Source of the DNA: a virus
Taxonomy: Duplodnaviria; Heunggongvirae; Uroviricota; Caudoviricetes
Strand: one strand, 5' to 3'
IMG/VR virus record: IMGVR_UViG_2563366988_000007
Location: 1 to 40,587 of that record
Length of the DNA stretch: 40,587 bases
Shown here: one piece after another, positions 25,565 to 34,368 of the stretch
How the letters are laid out: every line of letters begins with the position of its first letter
Numbering within the stretch: position 1 is the stretch's first letter
Position numbers and translations under genes: made by a program
The notes under the pieces: model-generated
Seen by the model: the letters and a program-made list of their open reading frames with translations, nothing else
Told to the model about the DNA's origin: nothing
Database searches by the model: none

Positions 25565-25641
25565 GTGGCATTAGCTCAGTTGGACAGAGCAACCGCCTTC
25601 TAAGCGGTTGGTCGCAGGTTCGAATCCTGCATGCCACGCCA
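25565..25641 (+). tRNA. tRNA-Arg, anticodon UCU
   Basis: Cloverleaf folded by hand: acceptor GTGGCAT/ATGCCAC, D-arm GCTC/GAGC, anticodon stem ACCGC/GCGGT with loop CTTCTAA, T-arm GCAGG-TTCGAAT-CCTGC, discriminator G, encoded CCA. Confidence 0.85.
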
Positions 25642-32096: not shown

Positions 32097-32444
32097 TCAG
32101 AACTCTTCGATGTTCCAGCCACCACCTGCTTTCTTTGGCTTAACCGTTACCCCGATGATTCGGAACGGATACTGATCTGCGGCGACTTTGGTTTTCACTC
32201 TGGCGTCATCGGTCCAGAATCCCCCTTTCACTTCGTGCAGTTCCATCTCGCCGGTGGCGAGCATCACAGCAAAATCTGGCGTATAGAACGTGTTGTCAGC
32301 TAACCGCAGCTTGATACCCTCAAATCGATACCAGACGATTTCTCCTGCACGTTTACGCAGCTCAAGGTGCTGGCAATACGCAGATTCTGTTTTGTTCATC
32401 TGGCCTGTTTTGAGTCGACCAAGAGCCTGCATCTGTTTTCTCAT
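32097..32444 (-). CDS. DUF1064-like phage protein
   Basis: 115-aa ORF, motif memory only. Confidence 0.4.
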   Translation of the reverse strand: MRKQMQALGRLKTGQMNKTESAYCQHLELRKRAGEIVWYRFEGIKLRLADNTFYTPDFAVMLATGEMELHEVKGGFWTDDARVKTKVAADQYPFRIIGVTVKPKKAGGGWNIEEF

Positions 32445-32561: not shown

Positions 32562-33344
32562 TTACTTGATAAATCCTGACGCCTTTCCCCGCCTGTATTC
32601 CTCCATCAGCCACTGCGCCGGTGTTATTCCCCCAAGGGTGGCGGCGTTAGGCATGCACCCGAAACTTCGCCCTGGTGGATGGTAAACGTCTCTCCCTGTG
32701 TCCGGAGGCGTACTCATGGGTTCTGGCTTTGCCTGTATGCTGATCACCGGATCGGGTATCTGCTGTCCGGAAGCCACCTTTTTCGCCCAATCATCGAGCA
32801 GCCTGCGCGCGTGTTTCTCAACCTCAATCTCGCTAAGCTGGCGCTGATACATTGCACGGCGGGTATCACATACGACCCAGTACATAACCGGATGTCGCCA
32901 CGGGAATCTTTCGGGACCACCAGGATATAAACTTTTTTCCTTGCTGTACCGGTGAAACTCCGCCATCACATCGTCAATGGTGACGCCAAGAACCATCTTG
33001 CTGTCTTTACACCACTTGATGAATTGCCCTGGCGACGGCCAGAACGGAGACTCACTGGCGCGGGCGTGGCGCATACCAGCGTTAACCTGTTCCATTGTTG
33101 TGATCCCATTCTCCAGAAACGCAAGCATCCATTGTTTTCGAAATTCGTTTAGCTTTCCTTGCTCGCTGATAGCAGCGATGCTGCCTGGAAATGCAGCCTG
33201 TAACTGGACAAACATTTCGTTGAAAATTCTTGCAACCTGCTCCTTCTTTGCCCTTTCATCGTCAGCAGAAGCAACCGCCGTCGAGTGGTCATGCCCACCA
33301 CGAAAGCGATCGTACTCATTAAGAAGTTCTGGAGTTGATTTCAT
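32562..33344 (-). CDS. P: Replication protein P (lambda P-like helicase loader)
   Basis: WMLAFLENGITTMEQVNAGMRHAR and PFWPSPGQFIKWC match lambda P as recalled; start at MKSTPE with GAGGTG SD. Confidence 0.8.
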   Translation of the reverse strand: MKSTPELLNEYDRFRGGHDHSTAVASADDERAKKEQVARIFNEMFVQLQAAFPGSIAAISEQGKLNEFRKQWMLAFLENGITTMEQVNAGMRHARASESPFWPSPGQFIKWCKDSKMVLGVTIDDVMAEFHRYSKEKSLYPGGPERFPWRHPVMYWVVCDTRRAMYQRQLSEIEVEKHARRLLDDWAKKVASGQQIPDPVISIQAKPEPMSTPPDTGRDVYHPPGRSFGCMPNAATLGGITPAQWLMEEYRRGKASGFIK

Positions 33345-34152
33345 CCCACACCTCATCTATCCAGTCAGTGTTATGCCAGTCAAGGCTCTTTCTGACTTCA
33401 CCTGATTTCTGTCTACAGAACTGGATGCGCCTTGCCAGCTTCTGCTCCCACTGTGCCTGATGGTATGCCTTACCCTCAGCCATCCAGTAAATTCTGAACT
33501 CTGCAAGTTCCTGTGCCGTTGGCAGACTGTCCAGGTAGATTCCCTGCAATGAGCTTTTCCGAAGAAAGTCATCTGATGGCTGCCATTGTTCATGCATGAC
33601 AAATTTGCCTAATTGCCCTGGCCCACCAGGAGGAACAAAGTTATTCATCACGGCGTTGTTTGCGCCGGGGTCATGAGGCACAGAATCCCCGGTTTTTGTC
33701 CTGCTCTCCCTCTCTTGGTTAAATGACTGGTTATATGACTGGTTCTGGATCCCGTTTTTGGGATCATTCAACATCCCGTTTTTGGGATCATTCAACATCC
33801 CGTTTTTGGGTATATTCCCGTTTTCGGTAACATTACCGTTTTCGGGTTCATTGCCCCCCTCCCGGTTGCCTTTAATGTTCCCGTTTTTGGTTATATTAAG
33901 AGAGAAAACCCGCACTCTTTTTGTCGCTCCCTTTCTCTCTCCGGTATCTGAAATAAGCCCCATTTTCATGAGCGATATAAGCCCGGCCTGCACGGTTTTT
34001 TTATTCAGGCAAGTGTCTTTAACGAGGCGTTCTATGCTGGGGTAGCAGAGGTTATATTCATCGGCTCTGTCAGCCATCGAGAGCAGTATGAGCTTTAATG
34101 ATGAGCTACCTGGATCTGTCTCCCAGGCCCAATCTGTTGCATGTCTGCTCAT
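33319..34152 (-). CDS. Replication initiator (O-like) with iteron origin inside coding sequence
   Basis: N-terminal winged-helix-like domain; Asn/Gly repeat linker encoded by iterons; overlaps P start. Confidence 0.65.
   Translation of the reverse strand: MSRHATDWAWETDPGSSSLKLILLSMADRADEYNLCYPSIERLVKDTCLNKKTVQAGLISLMKMGLISDTGERKGATKRVRVFSLNITKNGNIKGNREGGNEPENGNVTENGNIPKNGMLNDPKNGMLNDPKNGIQNQSYNQSFNQERESRTKTGDSVPHDPGANNAVMNNFVPPGGPGQLGKFVMHEQWQPSDDFLRKSSLQGIYLDSLPTAQELAEFRIYWMAEGKAYHQAQWEQKLARRIQFCRQKSGEVRKSLDWHNTDWIDEVWDEINSRTS
33749..33898. repeat. Iteron-type replication origin: six copies of core CCGTTTT(T/C)GG, two as exact 24-bp tandem repeat
   Basis: atcccgtttttgggatcattcaac x2 exact, then degenerate copies at 19-24 bp spacing. 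Confidence 0.65.
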
Positions 34153-34167
34153 GATTAATCTCCGCTA

Positions 34168-34368
34168 TCAGCTTGAGTGTTGTGGGGAGGAATTAATCAT
34201 GATCTGCTTAATCTCTGCCCTGATGCGACGGTTTGATTCCATGGTGCACTCAACACAGTGTCCGTTGTAAACCCAGCGTTCACTGTCATGTCCATGCTTA
34301 CATGGTTTTCCGGTGTAGTAGCGTTTAAGTCCGCGCTTTGCGGCATCAATACGTGTAATGATTTCCAT
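34168..34368 (-). CDS. Small Cys/His-rich protein in CII position (start uncertain; ORF extends to 34431)
   Basis: MEIITRIDAAKRGLKRYYTGKPCKHGH...CVEC. Confidence 0.35.
   Translation of the reverse strand: MEIITRIDAAKRGLKRYYTGKPCKHGHDSERWVYNGHCVECTMESNRRIRAEIKQIMINSSPQHSS

Follow-up and report, generated by a model that had tools for sequence, protein, structure and literature searches.

The stretch of viral DNA analysed here, all 40,587 nucleotides (nt; 40.6 kb) of the IMG/VR record IMGVR_UViG_2563366988_000007 (Caudoviricetes) and hereafter called the window, carries on its minus strand, between positions 32562 and 34152, a two-gene replication module with repeated DNA sites (iterons) inside the first gene. 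This gene (33319-34152, minus strand) encodes an initiator of 277 amino acids (aa), delimited by its open reading frame (ORF), Pfam and PHROG matches, in which a winged-helix N-terminal domain, an iteron-encoded linker, a DnaT-like C-terminal domain and a P-type tail follow each other. Directly downstream, and overlapping the initiator stop by 26 nt, lies the gene for a helicase loader homologous to the lambda P protein (32562-33344, minus strand, 260 aa; Pfam PF06992, BLASTP and Protein Data Bank (PDB) matches). We consider it probable that the module holds a lambda-style origin within the initiator gene, with a binding domain and iterons other than those of lambda, a DnaT-type middle and a lambda-like tail coupling the initiator to P. 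Judged by its layout, the module belongs to the known lambda-type class, in which the origin lies within the initiator gene, although it is built from parts unlike those of lambda; the particular origin family is apparently undescribed in the literature searched.

The decamer CCGTTTTYGG occurs in the window in six exact copies, all on one strand and all within 33752-33890, compared with 0.17 copies expected by chance and a count of six reached in 0 of 100 shuffles; tolerance of one mismatch adds just three matches, which are scattered and background-like. In plus-strand coordinates the copies start at 33752, 33776, 33800, 33818, 33836 and 33881, that is, at start-to-start distances of 24, 24, 18, 18 and 45 nt. 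On the coding strand the array (33749-33894, minus strand; defined by exact motif count, Tandem Repeats Finder and the relatives) reads as six CCRAAAACGG cores at 33881-33890, 33836-33845, 33818-33827, 33800-33809, 33776-33785 and 33752-33761. Tandem Repeats Finder resolves a 24-bp unit in 2.6 copies of 100% identity (score 124; 33749-33810, minus strand), an exact tandem duplication that makes up the three promoter-distal iterons, and an 18-bp unit in 3.1 copies (33798-33852). The initial annotation of this DNA, made from the sequence alone, had described six CCGTTTT(T/C)GG iterons in the initiator coding sequence, an exact 24-bp tandem duplication and translation of the repeats into an Asn/Gly-rich linker, all of which is borne out; the linker (aa 86-146) contains 17 Asn and 9 Gly among its 61 residues.

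All six repeats share one reading phase of the minus-strand ORF and encode [T/P][K/E]NG. Across the window copies, third codon positions within the motif are invariant and first positions vary (ACC/CCC and AAA/GAA, giving T/P and K/E). The best copies, GATCCC-AAAAAC-GGGATC, carry dyad arms on either side of an A-tract. Where at least four were looked for, the coding sequence of the initiator has, beyond the part for the DNA-binding domain, six direct repeats with an internal dyad. Transcription passes first through the iterons and then through an A/purine-rich segment, both of which separate the DNA-binding domain from the C-domain, as in oriλ. On the antisense strand, adjacent iterons pair up into GGGAT…ATCCC hairpins with a T-run behind them (plus strand, 33759-33778 and 33783-33802), which were flagged as terminator-like. 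These two candidate terminators were rejected as probable by-products of the dyad arms, their count not exceeding that of shuffled sequences, and promoter and terminator pattern scans in general gave counts not above shuffles. Folding of the iteron region as single-stranded DNA (ssDNA) showed nothing special (z = -1.09), and no DnaA-box-like sequence is present in 33200-34300.

Directly after the last iteron stand three units with a 12-nt phase, GAACCAGTCATAT, TAACCAGTCATTT and TAACCAAGAGAGG (33709-33745, minus strand), a candidate DNA-unwinding element, and these are followed on the coding strand by a purine-rich run read from the sequence (AAGAGAGGGAGAGCAGGACAAAAAC; 33692-33716, minus strand). 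The local GC minimum, 37.5%, falls at 33720-33759. The purine-rich run occupies the position of the purine-rich, AT-rich region of lambda and by that position may play a corresponding role. In 27 of 56 diverse loci, compared with 2 of 7514 background windows (0.03%), the 60 nt next to the array contain three or more phased RAAYC units, and in 30 loci such units occur in more than one reading frame. In many distant relatives two to three RAAYC units with 11-13-nt phasing are seen directly after the iteron array. Phage phiV10 has one more copy of the 12-mer unit than the window, and in the annotated origin of P22 GAATCAGTCA stands after the last iteron, in the place equivalent to the 12-mers. 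The phased 12-mers are thus the likely unwinding element, and phased RAAYC units may be an unwinding or loading element shared among O-like origins.

The initiator is assembled from domains of different relationship. Pfam assigns HTH_36 to aa 18-67 (E = 2e-10), within the N-terminal DNA-binding domain (aa 1-85; 33898-34152, minus strand), and the DnaT DNA-binding domain PF17948 to aa 184-250 (E = 1e-14), while the whole protein matches phrog_1032 ('replication initiation protein') with E = 2e-102. The RefSeq name of the identical sequence is 'DnaT-like ssDNA-binding domain-containing protein', and a large protein search, whose best 120 matches were all near-identical Escherichia proteins, revealed length variants of 271-311 aa. 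No match to Phage_rep_O (PF04492) was obtained for the initiator at E <= 0.01, compared with E = 6e-36 for lambda O itself, so that the N-terminal domain is HTH_36 and not Phage_rep_O, in agreement with the non-lambda type given in the initial annotation. The N-domain would be only remotely related to that of lambda O, as suggested by an hhalign comparison with the N-domains of lambda O and P22 gp18 (probability 57%, E = 1e-4 over 51 columns with a 23-sequence profile, a weak match) and by the matches of the N-domain and lambda O to overlapping parts of phrog_678 and phrog_345. It is 35-50% identical to the N-domains of the initiators of Edwardsiella phage GF-2, Vibrio phage Her, Acinetobacter phage AP22 and PPompW.

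The C-terminal ssDNA-binding domain (aa 180-255; 33388-33615, minus strand; phmmer against the PDB and Pfam PF17948) matches the DnaT chains 6AEP, 4OU6, 9ZBT and 2RU8 with E = 3e-19 to 3e-17, about half of the aligned residues being identical, and the match to full-length DnaT (9ZBT_D) spans just DnaT residues 85-160. By homology this domain is a close relative of the E. coli DnaT C-terminal domain, which forms a filament on ssDNA in the restart preprimosome and contacts PriA (PMC13377028). In BLASTP the initiator shows no similarity to lambda O except in a nine-residue tail, LDWHNTDWI in the window and LDLTNTDWI in lambda O (7 of 9 identical). The alignment of the initiator C-terminus to lambda O that the initial annotation had proposed consequently comes down to this tail, the C-domain being of DnaT type (E = 3e-19). 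Identification of the initiator as lambda O was rejected on the basis of the HTH_36 N-domain, the DnaT C-domain and a BLASTP match limited to the tail. Identification as DnaT was rejected likewise, as just one domain is common, the N-terminus being HTH_36 and the tail different.

The loader, which had been proposed as a clear lambda P homolog, matches Phage_lambda_P (PF06992) with E = 4e-53 over positions 2-162 of 162, lambda P with 41% identity over 174 aa (lambda P residues 28-199, BLASTP), a match that takes in domains II-III of lambda P, and the lambda P chain 8V9T of the PDB with E = 5e-41, and is annotated in RefSeq as 'replication protein P'. Apart from a correction of its start, for which the RefSeq ATG corresponds to window position 33344 (260 aa) and an alternative upstream ATG lies at 33356, this assignment stands. 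The profile phrog_109 covers P residues 14-263. BLASTP and phmmer alignments to lambda P run out near residue 203 of the window loader, which is 27 aa longer than lambda P, and its C-terminal ~57 residues (~204-260; 32562-32735) gave no BLASTP or phmmer alignment to lambda P domain IV (193-233), the DnaB-gripping lasso. In addition, the profile phrog_15931 (482 positions) is matched by the initiator DnaT-like domain at 200-274 and by the P homolog at 353-452; as both proteins match one profile, natural single-chain initiator-P fusions are suggested.

Comparison with related phages shows where the module is jointed. The proposed docking peptide for P, the C-terminal tail of the initiator (aa 256-277; 33322-33387, minus strand; LDWHNTDWI motif at 33358-33384), is exchanged together with an N-terminal segment of P (aa 1-~92; 33069-33344, minus strand) that corresponds roughly to domain I and the greater part of domain II of lambda P (domain limits from PMC12661323). 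In TL-2011b nucleotide homology of 91% extends over P and breaks off immediately upstream of the initiator tail, the initiator bodies being otherwise unrelated or just 57% identical. Phage phiV10 departs from the window, to which it is otherwise near-identical, in initiator aa ~243-277 and P aa 1-88, and its tail …HWNSPEAWEDFL goes with a different P N-terminus. Since these joints lie just upstream of the tail, the tail is passed on together with P and not with the body of the initiator. In 75 close relatives, and likewise in diverse loci whose C-domains differ, each type of tail goes without exception with one type of P N-terminus; there are at least two Trp-containing tail types, ..D..NTDWI.. 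and ..HWNSPEAWEDFL, and each has a P N-terminus type of its own. The LDWHNTDWI-type tail is common to TL-2011b and GF-2, both of which have P; initiators paired with DnaB-type helicases (P22 gp18 and AP22) are without either tail type, and the initiator of SPN1S, which has no P gene, keeps the DnaT tail. This pattern fits a docking of the tail onto the P N-terminus, and the latest structural paper on lambda P speculates that O binds there (PMC12661323). As a further observation, the initiator of SPN1S, a Salmonella phage of epsilon15 type, aligns over the full length of E. coli DnaT residues 85-179 including the …EPDSxIPPGFRG tail, with no P gene following; compared with its P-bearing relatives, this suggests that related phages use either a host-DnaT-like or a P-specific recruitment end.

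The module is accordingly best described from its alignments as a mosaic of three exchangeable parts, namely the binding domain with its iterons, the middle C-domain, and the last ~22 initiator residues with P. The N-domain plus iteron cassette is joined in GF-2 to a genuine C-domain of lambda O and in the window to a DnaT domain, and in AP22 the same cassette has a short C-terminus with a DnaB-type helicase next to it. The initial annotation had envisaged an exchange of the initiator DNA-binding domain with retention of the P partner. The mosaic nature of the module agrees with this idea, but a lambda O with just the head swapped does not describe it, because just the tail is lambda-like: what is kept with P is the last ~22 initiator residues and not the whole C-terminus of lambda O.

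What the sequences show is the anatomy of the module, its domain homologies, the conservation of the two repeat elements as DNA and the positions of the mosaic joints; from these the following mechanism is inferred. The N-terminal winged-helix domain would bind the six iterons within its own linker-coding segment, probably as dimers since the TCCC/GGGA arms of the iterons flank an A-tract, and a bent nucleoprotein complex would form. The duplex would then open over the phased 12-mers and the purine-rich run next to the array, whereupon the DnaT-like C-domains, locally concentrated by the iteron array, would coat the exposed single strand in the manner of the DnaT C-terminal domain in the restart preprimosome. 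Finally, the extreme C-terminal tail (LDWHNTDWI...) would dock the N-terminal part of P, which would deliver host DnaB.

The most immediate alternative, that the repeats are a slippage-prone, low-complexity Asn/Gly-rich peptide linker without function as DNA, was assessed with two sets of relatives, 80 diverse loci (one genome per species from gamma-, beta-, alpha- and delta-proteobacteria; N-domain 40-87% identical) and 80 viral contigs as close relatives (N-domain 99-100% identical). It would account for the common phase and the [T/P][K/E]NG translation of the window copies, and for a copy number that among the close relatives ranges from 4 to 9 exact iterons (mode 6) through insertions and deletions of whole 18- or 24-nt units, always in frame. 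A loose form of the iteron motif is, however, strongly enriched in the linker of the diverse loci (background 0.07 per 390 nt), where CCRAAAACGG appears in all three reading phases (89/10/26) and in 23 loci in more than one phase of a single gene, giving unrelated peptides (PKNG, QKR(D/N/E) and PKTE). This occurrence of the exact 10-mer in several frames, in these 23 loci even within a single gene, is not to be accounted for by a peptide repeat. The motif moreover persists across hosts of several proteobacterial classes, and related repeats, reading CCCAAAAACGGG, CCCAAAATTGGG, CCGAAAACGGTA or CCCAAATTTGGG, occupy the same gene position in relatives sharing only the N-domain (GF-2, 50%; Vibrio Her, 40%; AP22, 40%; PPompW, 35%), while TL-2011b and SPN1S, which share only the C-domain, have no such repeats. 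In an Acinetobacter clade whose recognition-helix region differs (DTEMDRKTVLKII), CCAACRWYGG repeats are found instead, a change which fits a co-evolution of binding domain and iteron. The codon pattern of the window copies, with variable first and constant third positions, points the same way as weak evidence, since there are just six, partly recent, copies; the decisive evidence is therefore taken from the relatives. Judged by these comparisons, the repeats are conserved as DNA and not as peptide, travel with the N-terminal binding domain and not with the C-domain, and behave as true iterons, so that a mere peptide linker is extremely improbable. The initial annotation had held that variation between closely related prophages by slippage only, together with a lack of origin activity, would speak against its reading; such variability, with 4-9 copies, is indeed seen, yet the array is plastic and never lost, as copy changes comprise whole units and no relative is without it. 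Proven origins vary alike, with four iterons in lambda compared with six in Shiga toxin (Stx) phages (PMC7466680).

Alternatively, the iterons might be genuine initiator sites that serve control, by autoregulation, titration and handcuffing or exclusion of related phages, with replication starting elsewhere in the phage. Plasmid iterons have control roles such as autoregulation, titration and handcuffing, and the segment beside the window iterons is not strongly AT-rich. Replication-inhibition phenotypes of fragments containing the lambda ori (PMC3349717) likewise agree with such a role. A control function alone is nevertheless unlikely given that the motif has no further copy in the 40.6-kb window, that a conserved phased-repeat element follows the array as expected of an unwinding region, and that the layout resembles the proven oriλ and the annotated P22 origin. 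It is also conceivable that the initiator works mainly via the host restart machinery (PriA/PriB or DnaC-DnaB), P being accessory or redundant and the tail no dock for P. The closeness of the C-domain to DnaT residues ~85-160 would suit this, the DnaT C-terminal domain being the part that contacts PriA (PMC13377028), as would the initiator of SPN1S with its complete DnaT C-terminus and no P gene. The window initiator has, however, a lambda O-like tail in place of the DnaT tail (…IPPGFRG), an intact conserved P gene overlaps its stop, and the tail always agrees in type with the N-terminus of P, all of which makes a main route through the restart machinery very unlikely.

Several observations weigh against the lambda-style origin with a P-coupling tail favoured here. 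The candidate unwinding element is just mildly AT-rich, the N-domain shows weak homology to lambda O, and the model predicted by AlphaFold2 from the initiator by itself was not usable (mean predicted local distance difference test score (pLDDT) 37, predicted template modelling score (pTM) 0.23). The number of iterons among near-identical prophages indicates active slippage or unequal exchange, the argument for DNA rather than peptide depends on the relatives since the window iterons are all in one phase, and a joint change of binding domain and iteron type is seen essentially once, in the Acinetobacter clade. That tail and P go together could be due simply to their being neighbours, as the genes overlap. 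Furthermore, the phiV10 record contains no rep_origin annotation, and in the literature searched no description of this origin or family was found, nor is an experiment on it known.

Among characterised systems, oriλ agrees in layout, with direct, dyad-symmetric initiator sites containing an A-tract within the initiator gene between DNA-binding domain and C-domain, an A/purine-rich segment downstream of the iterons, a P-type loader directly downstream (41% identity) and the tail motif LD..NTDWI. In contrast to lambda, the window has an HTH_36 instead of a Phage_rep_O N-domain, six instead of four iterons, iteron arms of 14 bp (TCCC-N6-GGGA) as compared with 17-18 bp (TCCCTC-N5-GAGGGA), the DnaT C-terminal domain rather than that of lambda O, and phased 12-mers in place of a plain AT-rich block. 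The Stx phages P27 and 933W equally have six iterons in the initiator gene, which lengthen the linker and differ in number between related phages, but these phages possess a true lambda O with lambda-type iterons whose binding and function are experimental (Kozlowska et al., 2020; PMC7466680), whereas the window family is known by sequence. In P22, with the genes 18 and 12, the origin lies within initiator gene 18 as an annotated rep_origin, and GAATCAGTCA... after the last iteron resembles the 12-mers; gp18 differs in its lambda O-type N-domain, the lack of an NTDWI tail and a DnaB-type helicase rather than P as partner.

The protein pair itself has a counterpart in the domesticated DopC/DopE of Cellvibrionales and Oceanospirillales, where HTH_36 and a DnaT C-terminal domain are encoded beside a lambda P-like gene (Brezellec et al., 2017; PMC5509034). 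DopC and DopE have been described as derived from lambdoid O and P, HTH_36 being among the HHpred domains in the O/DopC comparison and the homology of DopC to O restricted to the N-terminus (PMC5509034). They are, however, resident chromosomal genes of bacteria without dnaC and dciA, and no iterons were found in dopC (PMC5509034), while the window pair is located in an E. coli prophage with a full six-iteron array and looks like a phage-borne form from which DopC/DopE-type genes could derive. With E. coli DnaT the initiator shares the C-terminal ssDNA-binding domain (E = 3e-19 to 6AEP/4OU6/9ZBT), but not the N-terminal oligomerisation domain, the PriB-binding linker or the ...IPPGFRG tail. As the rest of DnaT is not present, the database names 'primosomal protein' and 'DnaT' cover one domain only, and the misleading label ('primosomal protein' or 'DnaT-like') would be replaced by that of a phage replication initiator carrying its own origin. 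In phage phiV10 (NC_007804), gp43/gp44 have a near-identical initiator body with six identical iterons, and genome type and the guaA-adjacent lifestyle agree as well. The differences lie in the 12-mer, of which phiV10 has three copies and the window two, in the tail and in the P N-terminus. Two apparent likenesses were discarded: papillomavirus E2 sites (ACCGAAAACGGT), which resemble the iteron sequence by coincidence, and the iterons of PMC8914354, which are unrelated plasmid iterons.

What emerges from the comparison is a widespread iteron family, apparently not described before, which could serve to pinpoint origins in numerous prophages of Acinetobacter, Vibrio, Edwardsiella and further genera, and the natural swaps of tail and P offer a genetic and biochemical handle on the handover from a lambda-type initiator to the P loader, a step that the latest structural study of lambda P-DnaB leaves to speculation (PMC12661323). 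More tentatively, and with somewhat less than even confidence in the two parts holding jointly, HTH_36, CCCAAAAACGGG-type iterons and phased GAAYC 12-mers might constitute one portable origin cassette, and the last ~20 initiator residues a Trp-containing docking peptide that chooses the P N-terminus. If so, the cassette would be conserved from Enterobacterales to Acinetobacter, Vibrio and the beta-, alpha- and delta-proteobacteria and would take interchangeable ends, be it a lambda O C-domain, a DnaT C-terminal domain, a DnaB-type helicase partner or none. Combined with the DnaT domain, it would amount to a DnaA-like initiator that unites sequence-specific duplex binding with an ssDNA-filament domain. 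The docking peptide in turn would fall into at least two matched specificity classes, ..D..NTDWI.. (lambda) and ..HWNSPEAWEDFL (phiV10), and would locate the lambda O-P interface.

With respect to its setting, the stretch as a whole matches, at 100% identity, a prophage of E. coli FDAARGOS_1303 that adjoins guaA and carries an integrase and podovirus structural genes; capsid and terminase genes are also present in the window. Identity to phiV10 and other Uetakevirus phages is 97-99% across ~80% of the length, by which the window is classified as a temperate phage of phiV10/epsilon15 type integrated beside guaA in E. coli. DNA similar to the replication module is found in 537 of the 5426 complete E. 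coli genomes searched, about one tenth. The gene after P (32097-32444, minus strand), which has the same position in phiV10 and SPN1S, encodes a DUF1064 protein whose PHROG match (E = 1e-43) bears the annotation Holliday-junction resolvase. A tRNA-Arg gene (anticodon TCT) lies inside the prophage at 25565-25641 on the plus strand, ~255 nt away from the position predicted by the FDAARGOS_1303 record with the identical module, and because of this offset there may be an insertion or deletion between the tRNA-Arg gene and the replication genes.

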